The notes under the pieces are model-generated. The model was not told the DNA's origin and did not search any database. It saw only the letters and a list, made by a program, of their open reading frames with translations. From NCBI GenBank assembly GCA_037446355.1, contig JBBIIT010000003.1, forward strand, positions 22,751 through 86,750: a DNA stretch of 64,000 nt, given 5' to 3'. The translations under genes and the position numbers were made by a program. This DNA is from Beijerinckiaceae bacterium. GTDB taxonomy: Bacteria > Pseudomonadota > Alphaproteobacteria > Rhizobiales > Beijerinckiaceae. Shown here piece by piece: positions 4,135-57,845 of this stretch; within the stretch, counting starts at the first letter, position 1, and every line of letters starts with the position of its first letter.

Positions 4135-4436
4135 CGAAGTCGAGCGCGAAGCCGTCGTCAAATTGCGTGCGCGCCACCTTCTGCGGCTACCGCACGAACT
4201 GCGGGCAATTCCGGGGATCCAGGACTTTAGGGCGACGGCGAGGTCGTCCGCTTTCGTGCGAGGTCCGCCGCGAGTTCCGGCCGCTCTATAAGAACGCAAC
4301 AAATTCAATCTCATGAGACGGCATTACGAATTCGTTAACACTGATTTACATTGGCCAACTAAATATGCTAGCGATGAGCGACAATGCAAAATGCAAACAA
4401 ATGCCGCGATGGCCAAGGGTCATTTGGGGGCCAGGG

Positions 4437-5800: not shown

Positions 5801-5880
5801 GTCTTGTGTGCGTTTTCGTGTCGTGACTTTGGTCAATGAGCCGCGCCGCCGCGCACGAAAACTCCGGAGCGAGACTGCCC

Positions 5881-18606: not shown

Positions 18607-18639
18607 CGCGCGCGACGATCTCAATCAGAGGGCTGATCG

Positions 18640-20957: not shown

Positions 20958-20967
20958 CGAGGCCGCG

Positions 20968-21840: not shown

Positions 21841-21867
21841 GCCGGGCGCAAACCATCGGAGTCATGC

Positions 21868-24097: not shown

Positions 24098-27000
24098 ATG
24101 GCTTTTCCGTTTCAGTCCGAGGGTTTGTTTGGACGCCCCAAGCGACCGACTCCAAGGAAGCCACGCAGCCGCTGGACGCCTCTGCACTGGTTCTGGCGCG
24201 ATGGACCGCGCGCCGCCCGCGCGCGCGCGAGTCGCGGCCGCCTAGCTTTCACGCCTCTCGAACCGCGTTTGCTGCTCAACGCGGACGTGCTCGCCATCAA
24301 TCTGACGCACGATCTAGGCGCGCCGCCGGTCGACCACTCGTTGATCGTTCAGTTGGTGCACGAGACCGAAAAGGTCAACAACCAAGCCGTCAACGTCCAG
24401 CGTGTCCAGATCGTCGACCAGAACAACGGCGCAGTGCTCGCCTTTGGCGATCTTGCCGCGATTTCCGCGGTTTCCATACACGACTCCGGCGCTGGCGCGG
24501 ATACGCTGACGATTGACGCGAATTCGTTCAAAGGTCTGGCGGCGCCGAAAATCTCGTTCGACGGCGGTTCGGGCCAAAGCCACATCGTCTTCGACAACTC
24601 GAGTCAAACGGATTGGACGCTGACCGGCGCCAATGCGGGCGTCGTCAGCGGCGACGGCGTGAGCCTGGCGTTCCAGGGCGCCGCCAATTTGACGGGCGGC
24701 GTCAACAACGCCGACATCCTGACCATAGACAAGGGCGGGACGTTGTCGGGGATCTTCGACGGCGGCGCGGGCGGCCACAATTCGCTCGTATTCGACAATG
24801 GGCCGCACACGACAGTCGCTTCGTCGGTCGGCCCGACCGGGCGGACGATCACGCTCGACGGTCAGTCACTCACTTATCTGAACGTCGATTCGACCAACGT
24901 TGGCGATCCCGCACTGCTCGACCTCAGCGCGAGCACGAATCTGAATCTCGAAGTGGCGCAGAGCGGCGCCAATCTGCATGTTTTCGGCGTCAATGGGTCC
25001 ACCTATGACATGACGCTGGCCCCCACGGCGGGTCAGGCGTTCGAGCTCAAGCTCGGTTCCGGCGATACGCTCAAGGTCGATGCGATCGATTTCGGCTCCA
25101 TCGCCTCAGGGACCGCGTTCAACATCGACGGCGCGGGCGCATCGATCGAGTTCGCGGGAAATTTGACCGACAATTCGGGCGTATCCGCTTCGGTCAGCGC
25201 TTCCGACACCAGCTCCATTACGACCGATATCGCCAGCGAAAGCCTGGCCCCTTCGGCCCAGAACGCTTCGATCACCCTCGATCAGGGCTACACGATCAGC
25301 GCCAGCACGATTTCGCTGAGCGCAAATTCGTCGGCGAGCGAGACGATTTCGAACATCAATTTGACGTCGCATCTCGTCACGAGCGCGACGATCAGCACGA
25401 CCAACAGCGCCCAGATCACTATCAACGGAACGTTGAGTTCAACGGGCGCCGTGTCTCTCGTCTCCAATGTCAATGTCAACGATTCCATAGCGAACAGCAG
25501 CGGCACGCTGATCCACTCGACGACGATCACGGCCAAAAACACTTCGTCGGTGACATTCGGATCCGCCTCCGTCGTGTCAGCGGGCACGCTCGATGCGGAA
25601 GCCAACACCAACGTGTCGGCGTCGATCAGCGTCCAGAGCATTGGCGCCGGGGTCATCCCCGGCTTCGTCCCCGCCTCGCTCCTCGGCGTCGCCGTTCAAG
25701 TCTCCATCGGCATCACCAATCAAACCACCGTCACGTTGGCCCCTGGCGGCGCCATCACGGTCGGTTCAGGGTCGATTTCGACCGCCAAACCGGTTGCAGC
25801 CTATATCGCCGCCACCGATGTCACCAACCTTTCGACCACGCTCTCTCTCGACGATCCCGCGTCGTTGCCGGTCGTCGGCAATGTCCTGGTGTTCAGCGCC
25901 CTCGATAGCGCGGACACGCTTTCGCGTACGACTGCGGTCGACGTCGGAAATCTGAGCGCCACCGCCGCGCCGTTATCGTCGGCGACTGCGGCGCTTTCGT
26001 CGTCCGGCGGCGATTTCTCGCTCGACACCACCAACAGCGGCGCGGTCGTGAATAATGAAACGTCCACGGGTCTGGGAACCGTGGAGATCAATGCGCCCGC
26101 GGACTCTGCGACAGTCGAAGTCTCCGGCGTCAATGTGAACGCCGGCGGTCTATCGGAGACGTCTCTCAGCAACACCAGCTACTCCGAGCTTGGCCATCTG
26201 GCGGCCATTTCGGTCGGCGGCCAAACGGAGGCGATCCTTCAATATGACGGCGTCACCGTCGGCGCCGACGGACTGGTCGTCTCCACCGAAGACGATTCCT
26301 CGATGACCGCGTCGTCGGTAGCGCCGAGTTTCGATCCGAACACGACGACCGAATCGGGCTCGTCGACCTCGGGCACGCAGATCGCGGTCAATCGAACCAC
26401 TTCCGTGATCTCCTACAATAAGGACACGGTCGCGATCATCCTGGGTTCCACGGTCAATTCGGGCGGCTCCGTTCGGGTTCAGGCCGTCGACAATGTCTCC
26501 ATTTCTTCGGACGCCGTGATGGCGGCGAACGCGACCTCGAGCGGCAGCGCGTCGGTCTCGGGAGGCGGCGCGCTTGCGGCCAATCTAATCAACGGGGCTA
26601 TCTCCGCCTCGATCGAGAGTTCCTCGGTCACGACGACTGGGACCGGCGACGTTCGGGTCTTGGCAGGCGATTCATCGACGATCGCGTCACGCGCGGAGAC
26701 GAGCGCGTCCGCGACCGGAACCTCGACCGCCGCGGGCGTCGCGGGAACCGTATCGCTTAACGCAGTCGGCTGGACCTTCGGGACCGGCGCCGCGGACCTG
26801 CTCGGCGCGGCTCTCGGCACAGTGCTCGGCACAAACAGTTTCTGGACCGACAACGCTCCGACCGACATCACCGCGGCGGGCAACAAGGCGAACGTTGTCG
26901 CCAAGATCACCGATTCGACCGTCGCCGCCGCCGGCGCTCTGCTCGTTCAGGCCGTGGCCGCGAGCGCGATCAACTCCACGATCACCAATGTTTCGCAGGC

Positions 27001-51000: not shown

Positions 51001-54000
51001 GGGGCAGCCGACGCTGATCTCAGCCGTGACGCTACCCTACGAGACTCAAAATATTCCGGTAGTCGAACCTGCGAATGTCGTGGGCCAGGGAGTCGGCGCT
51101 CACGTGGCCGACGTGTTGCAGGTCTATGCGGACGGCAATACGGCGAACCTCACGGGCGCGCTGACGACCATCACGGCCGGCAGTCTGTTCGGCGGCGTCG
51201 GCGACAATATCAGCGGTCTGGGAATGCCGACCAGCAACCAGACAATTACGTTCCACAACCCGACGACAGGGGTGACGACGCAATACGAAGGCGGAATCAA
51301 TTTCGTCAACCTCGACGCGATCCAGATTCTCATGGGCACGGGGAACGACACTTTCACGATCGACACCACCGCGCCGACGATCAATGTCGACAACAACAAC
51401 ATCCAGACGATGATGGTCATCGAAGGCGGCGGCGGCTCGAACACGATCAACGTCGTGGCGAGCAGCGACCCGCTGGTGCTCTACGGCAACGAGTCCGCGA
51501 CTGGTTACGAGTTCAATTCCGCGCCCGGAGCGATCACCGGCAACGGCTATCAGTTCACCAACTTCGGCTCCGACACCATCAACGCCTCGGGCGCGACAGG
51601 AACGGTCGTGATCGTCGGCGGGCCCAACAACGATGTGCTGACAGGCGGAACGGGCGTCAATTGGATCTTCGGCGGTCTGGGCAGCGACACCATTTCGGCG
51701 GCGGGTGCGCAAAACTACATATTTGGCGACTCCAGCGCGACCGTCGGCGAATTCGACCCGGCGCCGATCCAGCCGGCGCTGAATCCCAACGCGATGACCA
51801 ACAATCTGTGGAGTCGCTTGCTGACTATCGACAATACGGGAACGACGGCGGGCGACAACACCATCACCGTGACGGGGTCTGGAAGCAGCGACGTCATCGG
51901 CGCTTACGGCGTTATCGATATCGTTGGCCAGTCTGCCGGCGTGGTCGACCCGTTCGCGAGCCTTGGCGCCGAATCGATCACAAAGATCGCCTCGGTCAAC
52001 ACCGCGATCGGCGGCGACAATATAATTACGGTCGCAAATAATGACGTGGTCATCGGCGGGGCGGGGAACAACCAAATTGTGGTCGGCGCGGTCGGCGCCG
52101 ACGTCATTTTCGGCGCCAACGGTGAGGCCGACTATTCCAATGGCGTTCTGGTGAGCGTCAGGAGCCTCGATCCGCTCCATGGCGGCAACGATACGATTTC
52201 CGGTCCCGTGGTGAATGGCGCTCTTACCGCGGGCGGCTCTGGCGGGAGCGTCGTGATCGGCGGCGTCGGCAGCGACACCATCTACATGGGCGGCTCCGGC
52301 AATACGATTGTCGGCCATGACGGGTGGGCGACGTTCACCTCGATCGGCGCGATCTCGACGATCACGACGCTCGATCCGAGCTATGGTGCGCCCAACTCGA
52401 TCACGGTCTCTGGCGGCGGCAATACCGTCTTCGGCGGCACGGGCTCCTCGCTCATCACCTTGGGCGGCGGCGGCAACGTCGTCGTCGGCGACAACGGCAA
52501 CGCCAACTTCCAGGCGGGCATTCTCACCTTCATCATGACGACCGATCAAACGGTCCGCGGCAACAATACGATCCTCGTGAATGGCAGCGGCGGCAACGTC
52601 ATCTTTGGCGGCTCGGGCGCGGATGCGATCACGGTCAACGGCAGCGGCGCCAATGTGATCTTTGGCGACAACGGCGCCGCGACGTTCGTCAATGGCGTGC
52701 TGACGCACATCGAGTCGATAGCGCAGACCGCGGCGGCCACCGGAGGGTTGCCGAGTACGCAATCGAATTCGTCGGGGACCGTCTACGGCGGAGACGACAC
52801 GATCAAGGTCGGCGACGGCGCCAACGTGATCGTCGGGGGGCTGGGGGCGAACAACATCTCCACCGGCAATGGCGCCAATATCGTATTGGGCGATAGCGGC
52901 GCGGCCATATTCACCCTCGCGGGCGTGCTGACCGCGATCTATTCGACCTTCGGCGGCGCCGCCGCGGGAGGCACTGTCAGCACCGGCACGTCCAATAACG
53001 ACACGATCACGCTCGGCAACGGCAACAACGTCGTGATCGGCGGCGCGGGGTCGGACAGCATCGTGCTGGGGACAGGTTCGGATGTGGTGATCGGCAACGA
53101 TGGCGAGGCGCTATTCACGAATGGCGCGCTCACCTACATCACGTCCACCGATGGGCTTCTCGGCTACGGCGGCGCCGACACGATAACGGGCCCCAACGGA
53201 ACGCCCGGCGGTTCGGGTGGCAGCACGATTATCGGCGGCATCGGCGACAATACGATATCGATCGGCGGCAATCACAACACGATCATCGGCCACGACGGAA
53301 AAGTGCTGTTCAACGCCGCCGGGCAGTTGTTGTGGGCGATGACGTCGGATCCAAGCGTCGGCGGCGATGATTCCATCAACGTCGTCGGCGACGGCAACGT
53401 GATATTCGGAGGCACGGGGAACGATACGATCACGGTTTCGTCGATTCCCGGCTCCATTCCCAACGGCAACATCATTGTCGGCGACAACGGCGCCGCGTAC
53501 TTCGTCAACGCCATCCTTACGCAGATATTCTCGACCGATCCGACCTACGGCGGCAACAACACCATCACCGCGGGCGATGGTAATAACATCGTCATCGGCG
53601 GCTCCGGCTCGGACCGCATCACGCTCGGCAATGGCTCTAATATTGTCCTTGGCGACAATGGCGAGATCGACTTCACCAACGCCGGAGTGATCACCGCGAT
53701 AAAGACCACCTACGCCGCCATCGGCGGCCAGGACACCATCTTCATCGGCGCCGCGAATACGGTCACGAAAGGCCAGAATGTCGTCATGGGCGGCGCCGGC
53801 GCCGATACCATCACGATCAACGGCTCGGGCGCCAATATCGTGCTCGGGGACAATGGCGAGGCGGACTTCGCGAACGGCTTCCTCACTTCGGTTTACAGCA
53901 CGTTCGTCACCATCGGCGGCGACGACACGATCGCGATCAACGGCGACGGCGCGAACATCGTCATCGGCGGGATCGGCGCCGACAACATCGCGATTTCGGG

Positions 54001-57000
54001 CGTTGGCGCGAATTTCGTGATCGGCGATAGTGGCCACGTCGACTTCAGCGCGGGATTCGTGACGCAAGTCTACACGATCGCGGCGACAGCCATCGGCGGC
54101 GGAACCGTCGGGACGGGAACCAGCAGCGACGACACGATCAAAGTCGGCGACGGCGCCAACTTGATCTTCGGCGGCTCCGGCGCCGACACAATCACCGCCG
54201 GAAACGGCAACAATGTCATCGTCGGCGACAACGGTGAGGCGATCTATGCGCTCGGCGTGCTCGCGAGCGTCACCTCCACGGACACCTCCGTCGGCGGCGA
54301 CGACGTGATCAGGGCCGGCAACGGCAATAACATCGTGTTCGGCGGCGCCGGCGCCAACAACATCACCCTCGGCGACGGGCAAAACGCCGTGGCCGGCGGC
54401 AACGGCTTCGCGCAATTCTCGAGCGCGGGCGTCCTGCAGGCGATCTATTCCATCGCGCCGGATGCGACGTTCGGCGGCACGCCCGACAGTGGGTCGTCCA
54501 ACAACAACACCATTTCCGTCGGCAACGGCAATGACGTCGTCATCGGCGGGTCCGGCTCCAATCGGATCACGGCGGGCAATGGCAACAACTACATCCTCGG
54601 CGCGAACGGGGAAGTTCAGTATGTCGTCGTCGGCGGCGTGAACCTGGTCAGTCGTGCGCAGTCGACCTGGCAGCTCTGGGCCGGATCGAACACGATCGTC
54701 GCAGGCGACGGCAGCAACTCGATCATCGGCGGCAGTTTCTCCAACACGATCACCTCGGGTAATGGCGTCGGCAATATCATCCTCGGCCACAATGGCGAGA
54801 TCGTGCAGGCGTTCGGCGCGAGCGGCGCTCCCGTCAAGAATTCGGATGGCGCGTTCCACCGCGACATCGTGCTCGAAGAGATTGCGACGATCACCGGCGT
54901 GGTTGCTCTAGATAGCGCCGGCGCGGCGTCCGTGGCGGAATCGGCCGCGCTGACCAGCGCCGATCTCGTGTTGCTCGCCGGCGCGTTCAACGCCGACGGT
55001 TCGCGCGCGATGCTGCCGGTCTCCGCGAACAGGCCGGTCAGCGCCTGGGAGGTGCAGGCGCTCCTGCTCACCCTGATGGCCGCCGCCAACGACACGATCA
55101 CCACCGGCAGCGGCAATGACGCCGTCGTCATAGGCCAGGGTGGGAACAATACGATCACGGCCAAGGGCGGCAACGACTTCCTGTTCGGCAATTGGGCGTC
55201 GAACACGCTTCCGTTCGCCACCGACTTGCCCTCGATCGTCAACGCGATTGTCATCGTGGCCGCTCCCGGGGACGCGGCCATCGCCGCGCAACTGCCGGTC
55301 GGCGGCGCGATCGTCGTTCCGAACGTAAACTTGCAGCCGTCGGCGCTCACGAACATGGCGCCTCAACTCGAGACGCCGCCGAGCGGATTCGGGACGCTGA
55401 ACTCCCTCGCGGAGGGCGGACCGCTCTCGCTCGGCGGCGGGCAGAGCCTGCAGATTTACGCCTCCGTCGTGCCGTCGGCGCTCCACGGCTCGCCGGCCCT
55501 GCCGGGGTCGAACACCATCAACGGCGGGTCCGGCAATGATGTGATCTTCGGAAACTTCGGCCAGCTCGGCGCGCTTACCAGCACCGGTGTCGCCGCGATC
55601 GACGCGCAACTTCAGGGTCTGTCGGTTTCCATGCTTGGGATGCTGAAGGAATATTCGGCGTTGTCCGTGGCGCAGTACACGTTGGACGCGGCGAATTCCC
55701 AGGCCGCTCCGGCCGCGATCATCGCCACTGAAAACAATACGATCAACGTCGGCGCCGGCAACAATTTGGTGTTCGGCAATGCCGGCTATTACCTGATGCC
55801 GGGGATTTCCGTCGGGGGTAGCGCCTCTGGTTCGCTGGCGGCCGACGCGTTGGCGTTCGACACTTATCTCCTGAACATGCAGGAGGTGATGGCCGACATG
55901 TCGTTCGTCGCGCACGAGGCGGGCCAGAGCGTCATCGCCAGTTTCGCGACCAGCCCCGCCGCCGCAGCGGCGGGCTTCACCGGTGTGTTCAATCCGGCCG
56001 CGCCGCTTCGGCCCTCCCTCGCCAAGTTGGAGCTAGGCAACGACACGATCACCGTCAACGGCGGCGGTCGCAATGTCATCATAGGCGACAGCGGTTTCGT
56101 CATCATGCCGAGCGTCAACGTGACGATCTCGAACTGGGCGGCCGGTCAGACCCAGGCCACGCTCACGTCCGTGGCGACGAGCCTCGCGGCGCTGGAATCC
56201 TCGTACGGCGCATCGCTGAAATCGCAATTCGCCGCGGATCATCCTTTTGCGGCTGACAACAGCGCGGCTTCGCAGTTCCTCTTCGCCGGCGGCTTTGGCA
56301 TCCAGATCGACATCGGCAACGACACGATTTCGGGCGGCGGCGGCAACAGCGTCCTCATCGGTGATAACGCGCTCATGCTCGATCCAATCATCGGGCCCGG
56401 CGCGACAGGGCAGGCCAATTCGCCGGCGATGCAAGCGATCATGGACACGGCCGTGGACCGACTTTTCCTCGGCCCGGTTTCGGTCGGGCCGGCCACCGCG
56501 GAATCGTGGGGCGTCACGGCGCTTCTCTCGGTCAGCGGCGCGGCGGACTGGTCGTCTTCGGGCGGCTATGTCTTCAATGGGGCGAAGAACAGCGTGACAC
56601 TCGGCAGCGATACGATCAGCACCGGCGCCGGGTCGGATCTGGTCTATGGCGATCTCGGAGTCATTCTGCCGAATCTCGGAGCGAATTCGGGGCTCGCGTC
56701 GAGCTTCTTTGTCTATGCTTCCGGCGAACCCGGCGGCACCTCGACTGCGAACTTCAACTATGTCTACGGCTTCGGCGTGTTCGGTTCACTGCACCATTGG
56801 CAGAGCGCCCCGGGAACGCCTTCGACGTTCAACGTCGACGCCGACTTCATAACCGGCGGATCGGGCAATAGCGTTATTTTCGGCCAGCTCGGCGACGACA
56901 CGATTATCGGCGGTTCAGGCAACCAGCAGATCTCAGGGGGCTGGGGCTTCAACACCATCACGGTCGGCACGGGCGTCAATTATATCGCGTTCAACCGCGC

Positions 57001-57796
57001 GACGGACACGGTGATCATGACCCCCGGCGGCACGGACATTGCGCGCTCTTCTCTTAATATCGGCGCAGGCAGCTCGATCGTGGCTTATCCCTGGATTCAA
57101 TCGAACTCCCCAGAGCTTCGCGACATGATCGCCGCCGGCATGATCGCGTCGCCGCCCGCAGTAAATTCGCAAGTGGCGACGCTCGTCGCCCAATTGCCGC
57201 CGATACTGGAATATCTGCCGCCGGCCCCGCCGAGCGCGACGGGCGCGCAGAGTTCGTATTATCAATCCGGCCTGTTCCCGCCGCTCGATCCGGTCGCGCC
57301 GATCGTCGTGGCGGGCCCCACGATCGTGAATGTCGGCGGCGCGACTGCGCTGCTCACTGTGGCGGGTTCGGGCGTCGCCGTTCGGCTGGCGTCGCTGGAC
57401 GACGAAGACACGGCGGCGCAAACGACGAGCGCAGACGCCCCTGCAAGTCAGTCGTCGTTCGACTCGTCCGACATTATCGCGACTCAAGCCGGAGTTGGGG
57501 TGTCGAGCGCTGACGAAATCATTCGCGCATTCCGCGACAGCGAGATCATCGTCAAGGTCGAGGCGCCTGACGGCGCTGCGGCGGACGACCCACTGACCTG
57601 GGTGTTTGACGACGCCCGGGGAGAGTTTGTCGGCCGCAAAGCCGAGCGTTGGACCTTGACGCTTGACGAATCGCTCGACGCCACGGCGGTTGCGGCGACG
57701 CTCGCAGCCGAGCCCGCGCCGCTCGTCGACGATGTTTCATGGCTGGATACGCTGAAGCACGTCGGTCGCGCCGCGGCGCGCTGGTTCGACGCTTGA
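24098..57796 (+). CDS. Giant (11,232 aa) LEPRxLL-leader surface/secreted protein with beta-helix-like repeats, Ig-like domains and RTX Ca-binding repeats
   Basis: Uninterrupted 33,699 nt ORF with GAGGA RBS; FTPLEPRLLL at aa 51-60; G/A/S/T/V/N-rich repeats; many GGxGxDT nonapeptides from about 48600 onward. Confidence 0.95.
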   Translation: MAFPFQSEGLFGRPKRPTPRKPRSRWTPLHWFWRDGPRAARARASRGRLAFTPLEPRLLLNADVLAINLTHDLGAPPVDHSLIVQLVHETEKVNNQAVNVQRVQIVDQNNGAVLAFGDLAAISAVSIHDSGAGADTLTIDANSFKGLAAPKISFDGGSGQSHIVFDNSSQTDWTLTGANAGVVSGDGVSLAFQGAANLTGGVNNADILTIDKGGTLSGIFDGGAGGHNSLVFDNGPHTTVASSVGPTGRTITLDGQSLTYLNVDSTNVGDPALLDLSASTNLNLEVAQSGANLHVFGVNGSTYDMTLAPTAGQAFELKLGSGDTLKVDAIDFGSIASGTAFNIDGAGASIEFAGNLTDNSGVSASVSASDTSSITTDIASESLAPSAQNASITLDQGYTISASTISLSANSSASETISNINLTSHLVTSATISTTNSAQITINGTLSSTGAVSLVSNVNVNDSIANSSGTLIHSTTITAKNTSSVTFGSASVVSAGTLDAEANTNVSASISVQSIGAGVIPGFVPASLLGVAVQVSIGITNQTTVTLAPGGAITVGSGSISTAKPVAAYIAATDVTNLSTTLSLDDPASLPVVGNVLVFSALDSADTLSRTTAVDVGNLSATAAPLSSATAALSSSGGDFSLDTTNSGAVVNNETSTGLGTVEINAPADSATVEVSGVNVNAGGLSETSLSNTSYSELGHLAAISVGGQTEAILQYDGVTVGADGLVVSTEDDSSMTASSVAPSFDPNTTTESGSSTSGTQIAVNRTTSVISYNKDTVAIILGSTVNSGGSVRVQAVDNVSISSDAVMAANATSSGSASVSGGGALAANLINGAISASIESSSVTTTGTGDVRVLAGDSSTIASRAETSASATGTSTAAGVAGTVSLNAVGWTFGTGAADLLGAALGTVLGTNSFWTDNAPTDITAAGNKANVVAKITDSTVAAAGALLVQAVAASAINSTITNVSQATATASGNGVAVAVGGVAASNRVSRAATAFLKNVTPTSIGGSIASGAISVSAQNNSSVTSNSSLVTSAVATTAGAKTTYVSTDKPGNASSSTTALQPTTTLNFGDTVLYKATYSTANLFGTSVPKKETVNPGDSVFIAPGYPSAKGVADQVYVYIGSKPETIDLEQEDYTVTTNWKPVSVVNGAVYKFMGPANTNVALSTGDLFDSTGKAISTITPDYYDLGYWQKVPKAELTPSTDDKGHTTSGSASGAAVGGIVVLNEVHGGAYAIVTNSTVTGGSLAVSAIDNETINATIDATATASGGSSFNKTGGGSSGTTLAINGSVAINEILGNADAHVLDSAVTTNSGDDSITATNESDITASTASAVSASSSGGTTVAVGVIMADNTIGAAFQNLLASTVDTIAGGGVLGSQAPTVTTAYLQDSSVSATHGGLNVAASSTENVNATVTNATTADVEPADGSKSFGAAAVFTDNQILTGVTAYIDLAAAAVGAQVAVDGALAVGATDNATITTASTMTALGTQAASGPANDYATLAKSSYKFTNLSGSQTLNFGDQVAVQQADGTIIVYRYMGVTATGVDLGSLTTDTTAKHYTDLEYWKPLSADQLKQEAEAKSANPTTGTAPGESVSHDSNNTEFGSASLYVLFDYNNVASSTTAYINKATVTGGSVAVNASDTATISATDGSVVTTGAGGFGAGGVVATNHVTGSSTAYIEASTVAATAGAVALDAENTSTITATETTALTADGSAVTVEAAFNVIGWSGDNFGSLALSTLIGTDSLLGTASPDNTQAYIDGASGVTASGDVTVVANGKATINSTVGDQAAAGNGDATSTLNVGGVLATNKINTATQAYIGTAPSALATATTLDTSSATATGGTVKVAATDSPTLTATSTITLSATASTGGVAAALSGDYKYTDKSGTQTVKKDDQVYTYDSATSTATVYTYVGNSSTPSAGDSVDLGATSYTSSLWKKSGSGAPAADASKAEAKAVGAVFVLNDVRGLADATIAVAPGAASGSGLVTGGTGISVTANEAASITADTESNLTSTGGGNGTATTTANQTTQPAEPTGNPSTTTQPGGGLALGGAIDTNLVLGNAQASIQGATLSAGASGVIVNAQDTAQLDATTLVASSTGGAGSQGAYDLSIAFNSIGYAPENFLFNAVDALVGGAYLASATPDNATAYLKGVTVTSDSGALSVTAQSNEQVNATVSNAAGATTSALSEASSTGFGGVFASNKVDGSAIAYIDETGVSKPIAATGALVVSATDGSGVFSNVKLVSSAIVTPDGGTGALDAKLNGSNGASFNTAPTGGGVNNNQNLVFGATVLVGAGYDTPDYTIGAPGVGTVTLKTGDVVADGAVFYRYTGTGKSENLATDPGLATDPDFSVIGGQEGATYQYMGPPASTGYTGKTYDLNNTDYTDLAFWKLVPLTNVVPSGLKTPAPGSTTTAATGGAEKDGTASNDSSGNAKPSQATAVGGILVLNDVRSATQAYILNATISADSATVSALDQATITATNDSTVVAQTSTLGSGSNLALNGIIATNLIQNSADAHVETSSLTASNPATPVAGSPNAPVELTINAENDASINAINDAQTSGGGKAAGIVLAFNTIGYQSSNFLFNAVDGLLGSNILAFGKSPLSNVTAYADASTLDATHGGVSVTASLTAKINALTTNLTSSLGAALENASSVAVGGIIATNETNTSANAYISGGSATAGGDITINGSDRSRIIANDQQVVSSTLQDTGTSNSNVLSNYASQIKQGYQYTAQSGVQSIAPGTIVYDNHNQKYYVFLGSVTNTTQAPESVDLGTTDYTNSNPAAHGNVPLWAEFTNSVLLTALPDFTTVKQAGDQGTGSSSTAVGAIFVLNAITSVVNAYEDSAVLTSGSGAAAGAFGGQIAIGASNSSAVNATNSSTTTASNGKSGPTTTSPGSGLAINGIIATNNILGGTVAYAHKGSVTASGTGGSVNVSATSNAAIDAENTASTDAKTDSVGVVLAFNTIGIAMPVAGFLENTVDALFGTSLAGEQPDLVHAYIDSVPVVASAGVAVQSNETSSITAKINNAETGLFTSGVSVGATVTLNRIANDVGAWITGGSIHASKGDIDVGSQDQATIASTVLTPIVKLAASFSKSSTNTNATTVGVSIARNIIENTVSAAAGTAAGGTTLTADDGNIAITANQMASITATSASAAVSLGVTTSGNSGAFAGGGAVAINTILGGVTASSLNSALTATTVDPSTGAITVSATYGGSITSIVAALAVALSVSDGAADAVAIGAAVSLNLIGWRGTVADETQDSHNPITLSADVNGGSLTSGAAATVASTSSATIQATTLAAAVAISASTSGGSNSGQESTAGNSPTDANTEGKGSVTNASGGKSATDLGSANGTTVNEGSDVAGGAETNQGEKGGAAAGQAGNTASSESGASKGSSTSLATGLGAGGGILVGLGGVVSSAKSGGSAPGPTFTTTDATLPTDVQSVSNGNTVQLSSSYDTAKFSVGTDTSPKNGSGNSTGGQGSNTNSTVNPGDVVDDSGTLYRYVGPTALTGVDFEVGATPPDFTSTTNGVANWVKIGGTTGHTYQYIGATNGSLDLNNQDYTDATLWSDITGGNSAGGSGTTSAPSGATPSLGSGLGFLSGGSGATSTPQTPAGATNPSSESNPSEPATSTTSTEDQSTQSKESKNSSSLSFTGAGVYTENKIATTISSTIENTTKITTGSGAKAGLSVTAADSAHITSLDGAAAISANFSSSSNSNTISIGIGIARNTIQDSVTASVTSAGSIVAPNAPITISATQSADIEATSVAASLAISASTKDATSVAGGGSLADNLIGVKTDASLDSTAVGAAGNSTGALDVTASDTSTIHAIVAAASAAVSFSSQNANAVGIGASLAHNRIGDGADTGGGEVLASITNSPVHSGAIDVNATSHQSIEAQVIGAAVAVSGASDEATGFTGAGAFAFNEIAVTVGAKIDGGAANTTNVVDSAGVTVEAYDTSSINATVFAGSVAGAFSSENATAVAIGVSFARNSITDPVTADIANIPALTTGGGDVTVTAKENATIDAITAAVAIGASISGQNGTAVAGGGSLAANMIDATTQANITASTLGDATHNVGKVTVTAEDSSQINATLAAIAVAAGIGGQDGTAVAIGLGLAYNEIGDATGFGAGAVSAYISGTTTSASGLVDVEAKNDGLIHATTVAVSAALSGGGTTGVGVAAGGVAVFNTVSVPVSAYVDGGGTHSLASGGVTVAASDTADIKSLSVGAAVALSLAGTTGVAAAIGLSIAGNIITDPVTAYISGETSLTASNNAVSVTAKENAAINAKSYAAAIAGSFGGTTGVSIAGGGATAENLIDATTTAYISSSTLTSVGAVSVAATDNSTIDAEVAAAAVSLSVGGTTGVAVGIGVAYAHNRISDGSESGAGAVKAYVSGSSITGSGLLDIEANASETITAMTDAAAVTLAGGGTTGVAVSGAGVGDVNQSNVAISAYVDGGSISTGSVKVYASDASQILAFAGAAALSGAVGGTGGVAVSVGVSVALNSIMDPVTAYLSGLSSLTTAVSGDINVNAFEDAKIQAMSVAASAAISGGGTAGVSVAAAGATALNFIGAQTKAYITGLTTSNIGGGVIVTAKDNSEIDAIVGAVAVAAAVGGTAGVGVALGVAVAFNDITDGNPGGVGFVDAHIDTSSVTSTGVVDVEATGQETINALTAAGSAAIGGGGAAGVGVAGAGAAGVNAITVNIKGYVGGGSISSGGVTVLAEDTSIIRSEVDAASLAAGVGGAAGVAVAVGISVALNNINDSVVADVAGVGSLSTGGGAVSVNAQNSAQITTQAASASVSLSVGGAAGVSVAGGGAVANNVIGIDTEAYISGSTLTSVSAVTVGATEGGKIEALIVAVSAAVAGGGAAGVGVAIGISFAHNNISSGGLVGGGAGKVEAYVTGSSITGTGAVSVNATSSEAIDALVAAGAAALTAGGAAGVGVSFAGAFGFNEISISTRAWVDGGGTQTISTTGLNVSATDTVHITADVGAASLALSFGGAAGVSVTIGLSIARNTIANDEQAYITGVNSLAVGTGALSAEATENAKIHAGVFAASVAVGGAFVGVAVAGAATTAENLIKADVEGYIANSTIVSAGDVTVFAKDTSEILAYTDAASAAFGAGFVGVGAAVGISLAHNAIGDGTTAETSPGVVTAYISNTGVSASGALSVEADANEHIEAQIGSVAAAASGGFVGVSAAGAAGSALNDIKVDTSSYISGDSAGGTAPKGVSAASVSVTGNDTSSILADVEAAAITAAVGAVGVAISVAVSQGTNQINNDLESYILNAGVTATGSSIAVSSTDNSTITANAAAAAVAFSGGVVGVSASGGGAEATNVILTKSNAYFSGSSLTAAQDVTATANSAPTINANVIAASAAAVAAFAGGSISLGASAAFNYIGYTLGGTIQPNQVEATSTGSSVKAGGAFNETATDNATIGANVAAISAAVTAAIGGSLSGAGAGVSNDIAVDTYATVDGSGANGIHAASIDLSASDTSTITALVASASVAATLVGDSFSIAQSVASNTISNQTEAWINNAPDVLSTGATQIDATESANITSTAYAAALAIAGGGLSVSGGAAVALNTIGTTTEAFVQSSTVNSGSLDVEALDTSIASATTGQISVAGGIISIAGGGSAATDTVTNGVSAYVDSSAVTASGAVTVQATARPEAYAEADGITGGTLGIGASVALATVSPTVKATLGGNINAGSVSVIANASLPTDGKQSAYAKATGSVGGTLAGIVASDGEAYNNANVTASIGQFLSPANAAGTVLAVSGALLVVANSNTQQYALGSNQAFGLIAVGIAKSKAQANNTTLATIGAGAQITAATAAVNAGGNDDNQARAEAGSGGVVGVAAVTPTTVDNATTTATVGQGAIVATTGGNSGSAFEISANHVATVNATVSASSYGVLSGAGAVAENDINSTVTDSIDGIISGLAITGTANNTFNKPMLGGVGDNVTGDTGGLASAAGGSDTTNIAFTTLIDVGSQAVLTVNGSQANAGALSLKAYNSFQGYDQMTFKTGGAISGAAATSTIQTTTDIAKVYIENGAALTSVGQINLAAQGGGNVTTQVYTDTYGAVTAAIANSNVYLTPDNSIVIGSANAPVGTTLTAARDINITAGEDPNFAEDFYTVNAYTDAYAGALIPLSSVDAHAYVTQTNAITINSRSTLYSGGSVSLLTNYHVPSHAFAQAKSSSWATDVANAINSLTGGDPSKEFNGTGSSTESGTVEVDGAVHTGISRNITINFTYSSSATSANPVIVSSNPNISFTSPVETESSGLVTSYNAIRNQLADYQAQQSQLAKAGTSDATINQQIAFDQQELSSIQTQLIAQGLGQFDSNGSFVVTERIVQVIDLAAFTAQAGQIYLFGNQVQGSGVLDAPIGVNVNITDNTRASLQIEGITVPQNIGGIYLDGALLTAASVAADNTLINNQNATSSGAAFSSITLAKPPAPPSPNQAPSAYVNITALAQPLSASDIAAGVVQPSIIINGKIDALFAALSVISPNDINVTSTGGYDAYSVNFLSKNNITINEVQFFASGDPAAQLLGTPAVGENAIAGGATYVSQYQNTPQSTQFNSQTLEIQSEYIDLNGNITAGQASQTLTINPSDVAAQIQTIIAEKAGSPQLLTLPAADNPNGDFTVFFDPSNNSLLVEPVSAAGGLIIVKGHVASTSTATLYSFGYYGNVTINNNTGYTLAVNSIDVSQHGAGIVDITDLNQVQSGTNNVLEMKYLSTQGGGMTVSSNYVDPVTGVPAGAGSVSSSASNSTQFQPEVGLRYNFAVVYGTETVTSSTYYESDWIGVFNLGSGTLTAPPVTTVIQQPQVLASSLYFYVDTASVNKSYIFTSTSHTLTDSGQVAGANWSTSTWYGKKTYYQSYTDTVKTETIADHSIKADLPINIVFTGSATSGIAINSPNSSVILYGNLANLTGATSISAGGSITAPRPNTTIEGVQVSLSAGGAIGVNGQPINVIFAGTSGQSLTASTTNGAIYIATPSGSMPINSVSAGGDQAVSLNSHGDILVASGGAGSVAGGNVTIISGGAVGALGAPIKLMVGQQAADQLNLSALNDVYVEQTSGNLALFALTSTNGNAYVTVDNGNLINVNTNVQVDPRTTAELLAGSWTALQLTAGTGAADKINSTLTEYQVAQDAQYKTYWQDRNALVGGQVQLSTQQISDYTAAYTAQGQAKGLSGASLTSFVANAIATIQLSMTQQYYNLATIFGPGGSYSPGVNNVYDANTKTTYSSPVAYDPNTYDENFQYLLTQNEVKSLTGSIKVWTQSELLAGISAGLLQTSPTTLTDKSDPNIAAKNIVIRANNGNIGSLVNPVTNFNASADVVGFVTGTSIDGTPVQLAFAAAQLSDLNFLAATPLAENVNFVGNTMTLTNGATWASLGLNIQDGSSIYIGGSTLNATRNGSYLTVAAGGVNGSTITFTNSVFTQNSQNILVAPVVTNMQTTDQSTAGALTNATVNFGNDGNSGTITLTSGTWGPSYTKGGGIYIQSATDQNANGAGAFVPTGSNPYYTISAISADDKTLTLNWGQTLVAEGAVSVGVAPVAINVVSGALNVKYVLVSQSRDVAIAPDPLSGTINASAQGFIYLASQANLNLGNVVSTGGGDVRVRTQGFLQNDASSGVNVQGANLVLEAGASYIGTSATPVTIQVDTNGSLTARAQNDIYIDAPNGDIPVGAIFADGGVSLDASGSIYDAIASNFDKLQASWLELQAGGSIGKGAFGTGDFSLAQSIALGALHVDIVSSAPFDGSSTAGALRAWAQGSIDVMQTTGDLNVLDAYAATGDVMLEAQGNIYGGSLVDPTNLNSAPSGNDLNASVFGNNVFLYAGITANGVNGFGAIGSGQAAFNIVSSFSGGADSGAVSALSGGNYVYLDEVLTTLATTSNGDLRLESVSAGSAATAFVTDPVGNILNARGDNGAIVVSGKADLIASGNVGDGALRTNGFTGRIVSTAGNIEAISDTGNIYLWNIGALIVGGVVSPAVDPYALYAPKGSIDIQTSSPLEISQDVLAYGSIIKAAGNATDTGSSVTDSNLTVDAGVTVSSQTSSVELDARNNITLAGSMLVNGVLIAGAQIVAATGVTLDAGYLNTTAAPTGDQYDSVFIRAGAKVRAGAAIRIEAGNNITIDGASAVDGPPQLIAATTIDLMGGYLSALSGYDGNASTLKLSGSFQAQTFNITTGSGNDDIEFSPTAMAIAGATNISSGGGDDLIHVFNLPNMTTNAQIAANAGQINDVINLDGQNGADTYVVDATASTDYVINVNDTGALDSGLNTLIINGATTTSGQTFLLRDTFVAILKSDGQQVYQRINYNNSITNRLEINGGAVTGALVDANNLPNSTGDSYYLDGNSALTTINAGNGNDFFQVGQVYDPAGFGSSAGQVGAGIGDGLSFTGITLGGKNENLSYGVERSTVLYGGSGTDTFEVYSNKADLSMIGGSGNDTFIVRAFLVAAGTHLNVKGGTGNDTIEYNINAPLDIEGGTGFNTLVLLGTEANDTFVVTKDGVYGAGLNVAYTNIQAVTIDTLEGNDTIYVESTPQNVVTTINGGAGGDTFIVGGDVTNAVVSASTKGASSVTDNSVVSNDPAYNKIFVPGLSVTVAGAGGAIITPPSQAVVHVNDPASITSFTVSAPSALLAGNVAYVNISPSLPSAEWAAMGAAVLQVSVDGGTTWNSTGQVKFVGGVTGPQTVLLRAAPIPANDTYYRDETIVVAANVVSTDQPTLDSLVTPSVKVTVKASATGLIIDQSLASTTITAGPSAANQTSYTYNLSLNQQLTGSQTVTVNLVDPTAATDGVVLTQNGAPVTSVTFNATNWNTPQQITVMSTLSGLHGETPVTIQNVINNVDAGDVNLKIAATNTPGVLLLTPQGAAVTSNAPNGAYSYQMVLTQAPTADVTVNLLGDGQTVASSAATGFNANNQTLTFTSANWNVPVTITLTPNANYTPPASSGSGNAANTLLPFPNGPHTLAQINGPLIIDGGTQPGQPTLISAVTLPYETQNIPVVEPANVVGQGVGAHVADVLQVYADGNTANLTGALTTITAGSLFGGVGDNISGLGMPTSNQTITFHNPTTGVTTQYEGGINFVNLDAIQILMGTGNDTFTIDTTAPTINVDNNNIQTMMVIEGGGGSNTINVVASSDPLVLYGNESATGYEFNSAPGAITGNGYQFTNFGSDTINASGATGTVVIVGGPNNDVLTGGTGVNWIFGGLGSDTISAAGAQNYIFGDSSATVGEFDPAPIQPALNPNAMTNNLWSRLLTIDNTGTTAGDNTITVTGSGSSDVIGAYGVIDIVGQSAGVVDPFASLGAESITKIASVNTAIGGDNIITVANNDVVIGGAGNNQIVVGAVGADVIFGANGEADYSNGVLVSVRSLDPLHGGNDTISGPVVNGALTAGGSGGSVVIGGVGSDTIYMGGSGNTIVGHDGWATFTSIGAISTITTLDPSYGAPNSITVSGGGNTVFGGTGSSLITLGGGGNVVVGDNGNANFQAGILTFIMTTDQTVRGNNTILVNGSGGNVIFGGSGADAITVNGSGANVIFGDNGAATFVNGVLTHIESIAQTAAATGGLPSTQSNSSGTVYGGDDTIKVGDGANVIVGGLGANNISTGNGANIVLGDSGAAIFTLAGVLTAIYSTFGGAAAGGTVSTGTSNNDTITLGNGNNVVIGGAGSDSIVLGTGSDVVIGNDGEALFTNGALTYITSTDGLLGYGGADTITGPNGTPGGSGGSTIIGGIGDNTISIGGNHNTIIGHDGKVLFNAAGQLLWAMTSDPSVGGDDSINVVGDGNVIFGGTGNDTITVSSIPGSIPNGNIIVGDNGAAYFVNAILTQIFSTDPTYGGNNTITAGDGNNIVIGGSGSDRITLGNGSNIVLGDNGEIDFTNAGVITAIKTTYAAIGGQDTIFIGAANTVTKGQNVVMGGAGADTITINGSGANIVLGDNGEADFANGFLTSVYSTFVTIGGDDTIAINGDGANIVIGGIGADNIAISGVGANFVIGDSGHVDFSAGFVTQVYTIAATAIGGGTVGTGTSSDDTIKVGDGANLIFGGSGADTITAGNGNNVIVGDNGEAIYALGVLASVTSTDTSVGGDDVIRAGNGNNIVFGGAGANNITLGDGQNAVAGGNGFAQFSSAGVLQAIYSIAPDATFGGTPDSGSSNNNTISVGNGNDVVIGGSGSNRITAGNGNNYILGANGEVQYVVVGGVNLVSRAQSTWQLWAGSNTIVAGDGSNSIIGGSFSNTITSGNGVGNIILGHNGEIVQAFGASGAPVKNSDGAFHRDIVLEEIATITGVVALDSAGAASVAESAALTSADLVLLAGAFNADGSRAMLPVSANRPVSAWEVQALLLTLMAAANDTITTGSGNDAVVIGQGGNNTITAKGGNDFLFGNWASNTLPFATDLPSIVNAIVIVAAPGDAAIAAQLPVGGAIVVPNVNLQPSALTNMAPQLETPPSGFGTLNSLAEGGPLSLGGGQSLQIYASVVPSALHGSPALPGSNTINGGSGNDVIFGNFGQLGALTSTGVAAIDAQLQGLSVSMLGMLKEYSALSVAQYTLDAANSQAAPAAIIATENNTINVGAGNNLVFGNAGYYLMPGISVGGSASGSLAADALAFDTYLLNMQEVMADMSFVAHEAGQSVIASFATSPAAAAAGFTGVFNPAAPLRPSLAKLELGNDTITVNGGGRNVIIGDSGFVIMPSVNVTISNWAAGQTQATLTSVATSLAALESSYGASLKSQFAADHPFAADNSAASQFLFAGGFGIQIDIGNDTISGGGGNSVLIGDNALMLDPIIGPGATGQANSPAMQAIMDTAVDRLFLGPVSVGPATAESWGVTALLSVSGAADWSSSGGYVFNGAKNSVTLGSDTISTGAGSDLVYGDLGVILPNLGANSGLASSFFVYASGEPGGTSTANFNYVYGFGVFGSLHHWQSAPGTPSTFNVDADFITGGSGNSVIFGQLGDDTIIGGSGNQQISGGWGFNTITVGTGVNYIAFNRATDTVIMTPGGTDIARSSLNIGAGSSIVAYPWIQSNSPELRDMIAAGMIASPPAVNSQVATLVAQLPPILEYLPPAPPSATGAQSSYYQSGLFPPLDPVAPIVVAGPTIVNVGGATALLTVAGSGVAVRLASLDDEDTAAQTTSADAPASQSSFDSSDIIATQAGVGVSSADEIIRAFRDSEIIVKVEAPDGAAADDPLTWVFDDARGEFVGRKAERWTLTLDESLDATAVAATLAAEPAPLVDDVSWLDTLKHVGRAAARWFDA
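26750..34800 (+). repeat. About 370-460 aa super-repeat in the giant protein, with alternating helical and aromatic inserts
   Basis: The motif (A/S)(F/L/D)N.IG recurs at about 26755, 28142, 29255, 30428, 31805, 32969 and 33815, alternating with YxYxG...DL...DY...W modules. Confidence 0.75.
35640..40420 (+). repeat. About 255 aa (about 765 nt) higher-order repeat made of four roughly 63 aa units
   Basis: A(H/Y/F)NxI landmarks at about 35641, 36425, 37190, 37952, 38707, 39472 and 40243. Confidence 0.8.
48600..49740 (+). repeat. First RTX-like nonapeptide block
   Basis: TGSGNDDI, SGGGDDLI, AGNGNDFF, GGSGTDTF, GGSGNDTF, GGTGNDTI and GGAGGDTF. Confidence 0.8.
49860..50880 (+). other. Three Ig/Calx-beta/cadherin-like domains in the giant protein
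   Basis: YNLSLNQQLTGSQTVTVNL...VTFNATNWNTPQQITV and YQMVLTQAPTADVTVNL...LTFTSANWNVPVTITL, plus a divergent copy upstream. Confidence 0.65.
51300..56980 (+). repeat. Long RTX-like block with GDNG-containing units
   Basis: Recurring NxxxGGxGxDxIxxGxGxNxxxGDNGxAxF...GGDDTI units. Confidence 0.85.
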
Positions 57797-57814: not shown

Positions 57815-57845
57815 CGTCGTCGCCGGAACGGCGACGACGTTATTT
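57815..57845 (+). terminator. Intrinsic terminator-like hairpin after the giant gene
   Basis: Perfect 11 bp stem CGTCGTCGCCG-GAA-CGGCGACGACG followed by TTATTT. Confidence 0.65.

Follow-up and report, generated by a model that had tools for sequence, protein, structure and literature searches.

In a window of 64 kb (the whole stretch of DNA that was analysed), the 33.7-kb open reading frame examined here proves to be a genuine, unbroken gene, whose product is a Ca2+-binding fibre protein of 1.1 MDa that contains no cysteine. The most informative hint at how this giant works, which the sequence-only reading missed, is its tie to SapC and to a cassette of SecA-like, M50 and HlyD genes that lacks an ABC transporter. 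Nor is the giant an orphan, a further point missed earlier: its sequence places it among the LEPR-XLL giants of alphaproteobacteria, proteins 10-15 thousand residues long that form a conserved family, are covered by NCBIfam models and include orthologues from cultured genera. On balance we lean towards a secreted surface fibre folded by Ca2+, which would be the cargo of the ABC-less cassette and probably serves as an adhesin.

Integrity of the gene and its family

The giant gene lies at 24098..57796 on the + strand as a single unbroken frame of 11,232 codons, which starts with an ATG placed 7-8 nt downstream of AAGAGGA and is followed, immediately past the stop codon, by a terminator-like hairpin (57815..57836, + strand). 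An intact protein of 11,232 aa and roughly 1.1 MDa had been proposed, and both points hold: the computed mass is 1,100,739 Da (1.10 MDa), the frame is open, GC3 stays at 0.78-0.85 across its entire length, a coding composition throughout, and the protein is collinear with its orthologues. The pI is 4.05 and the net charge -538. The impression that cysteine is missing from the translation is confirmed by the residue count, which gave 0 Cys where about 95 would be expected from the genome-wide content of 0.85% (P(0) ~1e-42).

It is extremely improbable that the frame arose through misassembly or is a relic in decay that is not expressed. The 3.6-Mb source genome is in 134 contigs and several relatives from nanopore MAGs carry frameshifted copies, both of which would suit such a view; set against them are the 11,232 stop-free codons with uniform GC3, the maintained selection against Cys, and collinearity with intact orthologues of 10-15 thousand residues from isolate genomes. 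DNA-level repeats within the gene are just 60-80% identical to each other, and no long near-identical tandem DNA copies were found in it. A collapsed or chimeric assembly is unlikely because the repeats have diverged to this extent and because full-length collinearity is seen with independently assembled orthologues.

The N-terminal module of the family is found in 54 species genomes (54 family loci), and about 35 of these loci have an uninterrupted frame of 3,560 aa or more that encodes no more than one Cys. Full-length orthologues measure 9,874-15,161 aa, again with 0-1 Cys each, and giants that are collinear from end to end occur in Terrihabitans, Mesorhizobium, Aquamicrobium, Methylobacterium/Methylorubrum and Xanthobacteraceae MAGs. 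LEPR-XLL giants rank among the largest bacterial proteins known, and the present locus is a clean example: its 3.6-Mb genome has a single cargo and a single cassette, and all catalytic motifs are intact. The giant is the only LEPRxLL ORF in its genome.

Architecture of the giant protein

The ordered zones that the sequence-only reading described along the ORF are largely borne out, zone by zone. The protein begins with a two-part leader (aa 1-61; 24098..24280, + strand), delimited by NF012209, family alignments and AF2, which runs from MAFPFQSEG..GRP through a basic stretch to FTPLEPRLLLNAD and carries the LEPRLLL motif at aa 54-60 (nt 24257-24277). The NCBIfam LEPR-XLL model NF012209 matches at aa 53-69 with 17.9 bits (cut-off 17), in agreement with the earlier description of a basic leader with LEPRxLL. 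The leader has no hydrophobic core and is predicted to be disordered (AF2 pLDDT ~33); it stops at the invariant terminal motif FDPLEPRLLLNAD, and its end coincides with the start of the first folded domain. All family N-termini that were examined contain PLEPR[LV]LL, and an alignment of 33 sequences shows no variation at the motif residues.

The leader is followed by one or more family-conserved, short-strand beta domains (aa 62-360; 24281..25177, + strand), modelled by AF2 at pLDDT 80-95, which supports the small beta domains previously noted at this position. A profile of this region recovers 933 clusters at 50% identity, and a word-indexed homology search with the N-terminus gave a single match, the 6,493-aa fragment P0001. 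The AF2 model of the N-terminal 1,100 aa is all-beta (pLDDT 78, pTM 0.76); a Foldseek search of PDB with this model returned no match at E < 0.001, and its nearest neighbours, none of them significant, are beta-helical adhesins.

The shaft (25178..35032, + strand) is a long-strand beta structure with about 26 degenerate LktA_tand_53-type units and aromatic insert modules between them, the 26 insert-bearing units lying at aa 706-3298. It leads into a regular array of 32 LktA_tand_53 units spaced 55-70 aa apart (aa 3646-5663; 35033..41086, + strand). NF012206 (LktA_tand_53) matches the giant with 387.9 bits against a 50-bit cut-off, in 24+10 stretches, and an HMM of our own counts 59 units in total, including the 32 of the regular array. 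This array is built of 4-unit super-repeats of ~254 aa each, and along it the turn motif shifts from polar through GGTTGV and GGAAGV to GFVGV. What had been described as two zones, a shaft with inserts (about 26-35 kb) and regular hairpin repeats (35.6-40.4 kb), is by its profile matches one repeat family, NF012206; the shaft was recovered as the degenerate units, and the hairpin repeats stand, with an extent slightly wider than first given.

The middle of the protein is a non-repetitive 'dark' zone (aa 5664-8195; 41087..48682, + strand) that is mostly unmodelled. Within it, a helical hairpin is modelled at aa 6266-6318 (nt ~42.9 kb, pLDDT ~77), a beta-solenoid lies at aa ~6894-7084, and aa 7098-7206 (45.4-45.7 kb) look helix-like. 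Helical segments had been placed at 42.9-45.7 kb, and of these the hairpin is backed by the model while the second stretch is read from the sequence only. The AF2 model of aa 5950-7100, built from only 4 sequences, is poor (pLDDT 41), and a profile search of the middle zone against PDB found nothing.

The C-terminal part opens with a GGxGxD-type, RTX-like block (aa 8196-8546; 48683..49735, + strand), recognised from motif counts and reading, which is the best-conserved tile among distant orthologues (45-47% identity). About three Ig-like beta-sandwich domains follow at aa ~8590-8960 (49865..50977, + strand), with a period of ~113 aa and a weak profile match to NBR1/FW beta-sandwich domains (E 0.0045), consistent with the Ig-like domains recognised earlier. 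The long RTX zone (aa ~9000-10200; 51095..54697, + strand) has periodicities of 60/125/186 aa, and PF00353 matches at aa ~9,600-10,100 with 132.2 bits against a cut-off of 23. Of the two RTX blocks described earlier, the long one is accordingly secured by profile, while the first is read from its motifs. A terminal RTX block that resembles CyaA block V and its cap (aa ~10905-10987; 56810..57060, + strand) matches the profile of 7usl_C (CyaA RTX block V) at E 2.7e-18 and includes a stretch of the RTX-toxin-type model NF033943 at aa ~10,914-10,974. Near the end, all family members examined share a conserved C-terminal element (..EIIRAFRDSEIIVK...WVFDDARGEF; aa 11137-11177; 57506..57628, + strand). 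The aromatic tail noted before does have W and F residues at its end, and the conserved part is this element.

Whole-protein sequence searches of PDB gave weak RTX matches alone. No toxin or enzyme domain was detected by Pfam, NCBIfam, and PDB sequence and profile searches of the giant, of which ~2,400 aa have no confident model, and the initial failure to recognise such a domain is in line with this. Taken together, the Cys-free and very acidic composition, with nearly all of the chain in beta repeats and RTX Ca2+-binding blocks, gives the giant the look of a secreted fibre.

The linked SapC gene and ABC-less cassette

The genes upstream of the giant, all on the + strand, begin with an OmpA-like outer-membrane beta-barrel protein (4365..5756), the first gene of the cassette, and a 120-aa small ORF (5836..6198) at the DUF3467 position of syntenic loci; in loci L017 and L018 an OMP_b-brl gene and a PF11950 gene, respectively, occupy these two places. 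They are followed by a 621-aa GAF-HlyD adaptor (6205..8070), a 715-aa PqqD(RRE)-M50(HELGH)-HlyD fusion (8078..10225), a truncated 668-aa SecA-like ATPase with intact GEGKT, DEAD and TPL motifs (10218..12224) and a short HlyD/MFP adaptor (16708..17571). The protease motif is intact as well. Between the cassette and SapC lie tailoring-type genes (17578..22836) for an O-methyltransferase, a Trp-halogenase-like protein, two unknowns and a radical SAM protein, which are conserved in most family loci, the halogenase excepted. SapC itself (23218..23982; PF07277, E 1e-72) is directly 5' of the giant, with no terminator-like site between the two, and is directly upstream in 49 of the 54 family loci. 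Neither SapC nor the small ORF has relatives in PDB by sequence.

In all 10 genomes checked, the PqqD-M50-HlyD fusion, the truncated SecA-like ATPase, and the GAF-HlyD and further HlyD adaptors are found 5-14 kb from the giant. The synteny of giant and cassette is kept in genomes G002 and G009 and in Terrihabitans, where a minimal cassette without tailoring genes adjoins a 10,071-aa giant. Within the genus, the giant is carried by 3 of 37 genomes, and the same three hold a close M50 fusion (64-100% identity), while two further genomes have an M50-fusion paralogue of 43-47% identity and no LktA repeats. A 2,871-aa ORF beside the paralogous cassette of G030 was considered as its cargo and rejected, as it resembles a cyclic-glucan-synthase-type enzyme.

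Among ATPases, the SecA-like protein alone accompanies the giant from genome to genome. ABC exporters and TolC are absent from the 64-kb window, and in the other family genomes that were searched the vicinity of the giant gave no match to PrtD-type ABC proteins or TolC. None of the genome matches scores as high as the PrtD-type cut-off. Unlinked to the giant, the source genome encodes ABC exporters on contigs C59, C34 and C46, three in all and 760-900 aa long, and a TolC-type protein on contig C72 (317 bits).

The cassette corresponds to the 'secondary SecA_DEAD' locus, a module described computationally without a named cargo (Kamneva, Poudel & Ward 2015, PLoS One 10:e0129066, PMC4452313). Both have the same four core genes, encoding the GAF-HlyD, Peptidase_M50-HlyD, truncated SecA_DEAD and HlyD/biotin-lipoyl proteins, to which the present locus adds SapC, the giant, the OMP barrel and the ORF at the DUF3467 position; the 2015 account includes no cargo, SapC or LEPR-XLL giants (PMC4452313). 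Its examples include META1p2402-2399 of M. extorquens AM1, where most cassette genes are barely expressed in exponential growth, and its authors noted that the module has no evident inner-membrane pore (PMC4452313). A literature search on LEPR-XLL, on SapC with a giant, on the PqqD/M50/HlyD/SecA set and on the M. extorquens locus found no functional study.

Export, role and rival readings

The linked, pump-less gene set probably exports the giant. In such a route the low-Ca2+ cytoplasm would keep the chain unfolded, the PqqD (RRE) domain of the membrane-bound M50 protease-adaptor fusion would recognise the leader, and the SecA-like ATPase would supply the energy. Three HlyD-type adaptors and an outer-membrane protein could provide the path through the envelope, and the M50 protease may remove or release the leader near LEPRLLL. 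Outside the cell, Ca2+ would then make the RTX blocks and beta repeats fold, giving a stiff fibre on the order of 0.1 um, which might function in attachment, aggregation or as a surface coat. The leader or the fibre may also be modified by the products of the conserved methyltransferase/radical-SAM and variable halogenase/oxygenase genes. By analogy, the protein is probably an adhesin, though the computed features suit a sheath as well.

A more specific proposal, which we advance tentatively and hold at a little under even chances, is that a secretion system of its own kind, independent of ABC transporters, has the giant as its natural cargo. A PqqD/RRE domain fused to an M50 intramembrane protease would read the RiPP-style leader (aa 1-61), a truncated SecA motor would provide the energy, and three HlyD-type adaptors would lead on to an outer-membrane barrel, with SapC and the conserved methyltransferase and radical-SAM enzymes acting on a 1.1-MDa 'core'. 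If this is true, no larger product that is guided by a leader and tailored after translation would be known. Export by the cassette is supported by the conserved linkage, the disordered and conserved leader, the intact ATPase and protease motifs and the uniqueness of the LEPRxLL ORF in the genome, although the linkage, as read from the sequences, counts as linkage and not as mechanism. RTX blocks with a C-terminal cap are a hallmark of C-terminus-first type I secretion via an ABC transporter and fit awkwardly with an N-terminal leader. Also counting against the cassette are the lack of an evident inner-membrane pore among its products, the unlinked ABC exporters and TolC that could serve the giant in trans, the size of the M50-fusion family (at least 7,413 proteins, far bigger than the giant family) and the low exponential-phase expression in M. 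extorquens AM1.

Several of these points favour a classical type I substrate, exported C-terminus first through unlinked ABC/MFP/TolC proteins, with SapC as an accessory and the M50/SecA-like/GAF cassette handling the leader, for example in envelope retention and regulated proteolytic release by analogy with LapA, LapG and LapD. The RTX repeats, the CyaA-like terminal block, the acidic, Cys-free composition, the poreless cassette, the exporters available in the genome and the naming of SapC after the T1SS S-layer operon sapCDEF of Campylobacter fetus would all suit this route. We nevertheless consider it rather unlikely: no dedicated ABC/MFP/TolC set is encoded with the giant in the 64-kb window, matches to PrtD-type ABC proteins and TolC are likewise missing beside the giant in the other family genomes searched, PrtD-type matches fall short of the cut-off, the SecA-like protein is the sole accompanying ATPase, and the C-terminal element is conserved, unlike the poorly conserved T1SS signals. 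For such signals no reliable sequence model exists. Another reading, in which a small RiPP is the product and export substrate of the PqqD-M50, radical-SAM, methyltransferase and halogenase genes and the giant is just a neighbour with a separate export route, is quite improbable. These genes, which comprise two B12-radical SAM genes, one radical SAM gene, an O-methyltransferase and a halogenase, are also compatible with a small-peptide pathway, and the M50 part has a match of 152 bits, short of the cut-off, to the daptide HExxH intramembrane protease and also resembles YydH/LiaK; yet the linkage holds in 10/10 genomes, Terrihabitans and M. liriopis have cassette, SapC and giant with hardly any tailoring genes, the giant's own N-terminus is conserved, disordered and leader-like, and no conserved small precursor ORF was noticed, short of a systematic search.

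The sequence-only reading had offered an adhesin, a sheath or a contact-dependent apparatus, and while the secreted fibre fits the composition and the repeats, a contact-dependent (CDI/TPS-like) apparatus is unsupported because there is no TPS domain, TpsB partner, recognisable C-terminal toxin or conserved downstream immunity gene. Neither a TPS domain (Pfam, N-terminus) nor a ShlB/FhaC-type neighbour was found, which speaks against two-partner secretion, and Pfam detected no autotransporter beta-barrel translocator domain at either end of the giant, as types Va/Ve would have, nor does the leader show the hydrophobic core of the Sec signal peptide that they also carry. A toxin-delivery or needle-like protein, of the CdiA/FhaB kind or the 'type 6-like auto-injection needle' proposed for the Chlorochromatium giants, has the filamentous beta-repeat architecture in its favour, as well as the LEPRxLL, LktA-like repeats and upstream sapC shared with Cag_663/665, which are reportedly transferred into the partner cell (bioRxiv 10.64898/2026.03.19.712371). 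It is highly improbable here, as the C-terminus is conserved and not polymorphic, in addition to the missing parts listed above. A Leptothrix-type sheath protein was also considered and dropped, as nothing spoke for it and the host is an alphaproteobacterium.

Compared by shared modules, the preferred cassette-exported fibre has close counterparts in Chlorobium chlorochromatii, whose giants Cag_663 (36,806 aa) and Cag_665 (20,647 aa) belong to the LEPRxLL giants preceded by sapC that in Chlorochromatium are expressed and exit the producer cell (bioRxiv 10.64898/2026.03.19.712371). They have in common with the present giant an N-terminal 24-aa LEPRxLL domain, LktA-like tandem repeats, a Ca2+-binding filamentous beta structure and sapC directly upstream, without a classical export signal. 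The present giant is 2-3x shorter and from another phylum, has true RTX blocks and a CyaA-like cap, shows no detected HK97 or MtxA-like domains, and is accompanied by an OmpA-like barrel instead of a TolC-like gene. Fusobacterium necrophorum LktA and FhaB/CdiA-type filaments share with it the filamentous beta architecture and the 53-aa tandem repeat family from which NF012206 takes its name; a TPS domain and TpsB transporter were not found for the giant, nor evidence of toxicity. Adhesins of the LapA, MpIBP, SiiE and FrhA type have BIg repeats, ABC/MFP/TolC genes alongside and a folded N-terminal retention module cut by LapG. Their great size, acidity, repetitiveness, C-terminal RTX and Ca2+-dependent folding recur in the giant, as does an N-terminal element, which in the adhesins functions in retention; the giant instead has LktA_tand_53 units, a disordered basic leader and no linked ABC transporter. 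The C. fetus sapCDEF/SapA locus also encodes a SapC-family protein with a secreted, Cys-poor surface protein; unlike the present locus, it includes the T1SS genes for ABC (SapD), MFP (SapE) and OMP (SapF) proteins and a cargo of ~100 kDa.

Methylorubrum/Methylobacterium, Mesorhizobium, Aminobacter and Devosia, all easily grown and genetically tractable, contain near relatives of the giant that measure 10-15 thousand residues and come with the same cassette. Direct tests are therefore within reach for what the 'secondary SecA' module of the 2015 prediction carries and how it works, and for the role of the LEPRxLL leader. Structural work can start from the family-wide avoidance of Cys, the element conserved at the C-terminus and the graded 4-unit super-repeat.

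An intact, cysteine-free open frame

The giant gene forms a single open frame of 11,232 codons at window positions 24098-57796 (+), with AAGAGGA 7-8 nt before its ATG and a terminator-like hairpin 3′ of its stop codon, and no terminator-like site was found between the SapC gene and the giant gene. Its product has a mass of 1,100,739 Da, a pI of 4.05, and 811 Asp and Glu residues against 273 Lys and Arg. The residue count gives no cysteine; as cysteine makes up 0.85% of long ORFs in the same genome, about 95 would be expected (P(0) ~1e-42). Counted per 1,000 codons, GC3 remains at 0.78-0.85 along the whole gene and resembles that of its neighbours. Internal repeats share a DNA identity of only 60-80%, and Tandem Repeats Finder detected no long near-identical array in the gene. 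Collapse of the assembly at this site is unlikely. The sequence-only reading, which had described an intact 11,232-aa ORF and noticed no cysteine, was thus correct on both points, and the giant gene is real and its product avoids cysteine.

Domain architecture from leader to C-terminus

The giant belongs to the LEPR-XLL family and is the only LEPRxLL ORF in its genome. Its leader (aa 1-61) is basic, predicted to be disordered (pLDDT ~33) and ends in FTPLEPRLLLNAD, with the NCBIfam LEPR-XLL model NF012209 matching aa 53-69 slightly over cut-off. The leader sequence is conserved in the family, with the consensus MAFPF[KQ]SEG..G[RP]P, 30-45 basic residues and RL[IV]FDPLEPR[LV]LLN[AS]D. An AlphaFold2 model of the N-terminal region from a 33-sequence alignment (mean pLDDT 78.4, pTM 0.76) places the first beta strand from residue 64, and short-strand beta domains (aa 62-360) are followed by a region of long strands of 14-22 residues (aa 360-1040). 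Foldseek found no significant match to this model in the PDB; the best neighbours, all non-significant, are beta-helical adhesins or passengers (CyaA RTX, EtpA, EspC, SepA, Fap2 and Hap).

The repeat region scores 388 bits against NF012206 (LktA_tand_53), a name taken from the Fusobacterium leukotoxin, and an HMM of the giant's own units marks 59 units across aa 706-5663. These include 26 degenerate units interrupted by inserts, some with an aromatic GDxV..YxYxG..DY..W signature, and a regular array of 32 unbroken units at aa 3646-5663 (nt 35033-41086, +). A beta-helix-like shaft and a separate zone of hairpin repeats had been proposed earlier; both zones exist, but as the same HMM units occur in each they are two states of a single LktA_tand_53-type family. 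Within the regular array, every four units make up a super-repeat of ~254 aa, and unit similarity is maximal at offsets 4 and 8 (1.24 at offset 4 vs 0.2-0.4 at other offsets). Between units, the turn shifts step by step along the array from polar (SSQNAN, SGQNGT) to GGTTGV, then GGAAGV and then GFVGV, giving a hydrophobicity gradient along the fibre.

The mid-zone (aa 5664-8195) lacks repeats and is richer in aromatic residues. Its AlphaFold model, built on four sequences only, is poor (pLDDT 41), with a helical hairpin (aa 6266-6318) and a beta-solenoid (aa ~6894-7084) as the confident parts; a further helix-like stretch lies at aa 7098-7206, and the two helical stretches match the two ends of the helical zone previously placed at 42.9-45.7 kb. 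The C-terminal third comprises a GGxGxD-type block (aa 8196-8546), about three Ig-like domains (aa ~8590-8960), a long RTX zone (aa ~9000-10200) and a terminal RTX block; the family profile of this last block matches the CyaA block V/cap (E 2.7e-18). An element of ~40 aa (aa 11137-11177; window 57506-57628, +) with the pattern ..[DE][VIL]I[RS]..[SG][ED]I[VI][LV][KR]...W.FD[ED]..G[ST][FL] is kept from Xanthobacteraceae to Methylorubrum within an otherwise variable tail, and may act in recognition or anchoring, with SapC as a possible partner.

Family distribution and linkage to SapC and the cassette

A scan with the N-terminal alignment in one genome per species yields 54 loci, in Mesorhizobium (including M. 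loti CJ3sym, M. neociceri and M. liriopis), Aminobacter, Aquamicrobium, Terrihabitans, Devosia and at least 15 species of Methylobacterium/Methylorubrum, in MAGs of Paracoccus, Roseovarius, Xanthobacteraceae, Stellaceae and Ancalomicrobiaceae, and in one Chromatiales and one Sphingomonadales MAG. At ~35 of the 54 the frame meets no stop before the 10-kb flank ends, giving at least 3,560 aa with 0-1 Cys; complete open frames span 9,874-15,161 aa, and four full-length orthologues are collinear with the giant from leader to C-terminus, again with 0-1 Cys. With a profile built on the first 300 aa, 933 clusters (50% identity) are retrieved, including 89 at E <1e-30; most are contig-truncated fragments. 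Among 60 related genomes searched, the repeat array is confined to two congeneric species, one with a 10,901-codon open frame and one broken by frameshifts. Frame-broken copies come mostly from MFD MAGs (contig G009:C17 with loci L010-L013, and loci L019, L024-L027, L030, L049 and L056), where many frame changes, due to either sequencing error or decay, interrupt the gene, unlike isolate genomes, in which the frames are intact. Horizontal movement of the whole locus is suggested by its patchy occurrence, with a copy on the 697-kb plasmid NZ_CP171995.1 of Aminobacter sp. UC22_36 (L032), another in M. loti CJ3sym (L039), and presence in 3 of 37 species of the genus.

The giant is linked to SapC and to the cassette. 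In 49 of the 54 loci the gene immediately before the giant encodes SapC (PF07277), and most loci also carry upstream homologues of an O-methyltransferase, a radical-SAM gene and two unknown genes. In the window the unknown genes lie at 20163-20957 and 20938-21840 within the block 17578-22836, the former being kept even in the minimal Terrihabitans cassette; a Trp-halogenase-like gene is found upstream in some lineages only. Farther upstream in the window lies the cassette, in the order OmpA-like barrel, 120-aa ORF, GAF-HlyD, PqqD-M50(HELGH)-HlyD, SecA paralogue (668 aa; GEGKT, DEAD and TPL motifs) and short HlyD. The 120-aa ORF (5836-6198) has no PDB relative detectable by sequence, and the syntenic loci L017 and L018 have DUF3467 (PF11950) in its place; a spurious 476-aa minus-strand ORF overlaps it. 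Terrihabitans rhizophilus presents OMP, DUF3467, GAF-MFP, PqqD-M50-MFP, SecA-like, MFP, one unknown gene, SapC and a 10,071-aa giant, and ten family genomes each have one close M50-fusion orthologue, 5-14 kb from the giant start.

Two other congeners (G032 and G030) carry paralogues (43-47%) of the cassette's GAF-HlyD, M50 and SecA-like genes and no LktA repeats. Each paralogous cassette lies just 3′ of a different Ala/Thr/Val-rich open frame that runs off the contig at its 5′ end (at least 3,138 aa on G032:C260, L014; ~580 aa visible on G030:C32, L015-L016). The cassette may serve more than one cargo family.

One methyltransferase gene and two radical-SAM genes of the B12-binding type (12233-16549, -) sit within the cassette both here and in the compared genome G009, are absent at the G002 locus and have homologues downstream of the giant in Methylorubrum rhodesianum; they look like a mobile accessory block. 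No conserved genes were found downstream of the giant across the family. A 2OG-Fe(II) oxygenase (PF13759, TIGR02466-like) and a P-loop kinase-like gene follow it at 57855-59132, the oxygenase doing so elsewhere only in a close Xanthobacteraceae relative. SapC, a halogenase and a TIGR02466-like oxygenase form a trio beside TonB receptors in other bacteria.

Proposed export route and function

No functional work on the alphaproteobacterial LEPR-XLL giants emerged from a literature search. In the route proposed here, the PqqD domain would recognise the leader, the SecA-like motor would provide the energy for export, the M50 protease would cut near LEPRLLL, and the giant would cross the envelope via an adaptor conduit, to be folded by Ca2+ binding outside the cell, where it would act at the surface as a fibre. 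For the 'secondary SecA_DEAD' module, Kamneva et al. (2015; PMC4452313) proposed a role in secretion, SecA being the ATPase; they noted that a membrane pore was missing, named no cargo and reported little expression in exponential growth. As a putative pair of cargo and machine, the giant and its cassette are clean and open to testing, and tractable bacteria carry orthologues.

The strongest alternative is that an unlinked ABC exporter and TolC secrete the giant C-terminus first, as in classical type I secretion, in which case the cassette would retain and release the N-terminus. The RTX cap favours such a route and unlinked ABC and TolC proteins exist in the genome. Against it, no linked ABC gene occurs across the family genomes searched, and the giant locus itself contains neither an ABC exporter nor TolC. 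Compared with these two routes, a separate RiPP pathway is less likely, as is an artefactual frame. A contact-dependent toxin system is also less likely: searches of Pfam, NCBIfam and the PDB by sequence and profile found no toxin, enzyme, TPS or autotransporter domain in the giant, in agreement with the sequence-only reading, which had recognised no toxin or enzymatic domain. Its contact-dependent proposal is accordingly not supported, and its fibre proposal is supported in part.

A 2026 preprint on Chlorochromatium (bioRxiv 10.64898/2026.03.19.712371) describes giants of 20,647 and 36,806 aa with a LEPRxLL domain, LktA-like repeats in one of the two and sapC just upstream, and reports their expression and their arrival in the partner cell. 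Scaled from the 240-400 nm modelled for these 20-37k-aa proteins, the fibre would measure ~0.1 µm.
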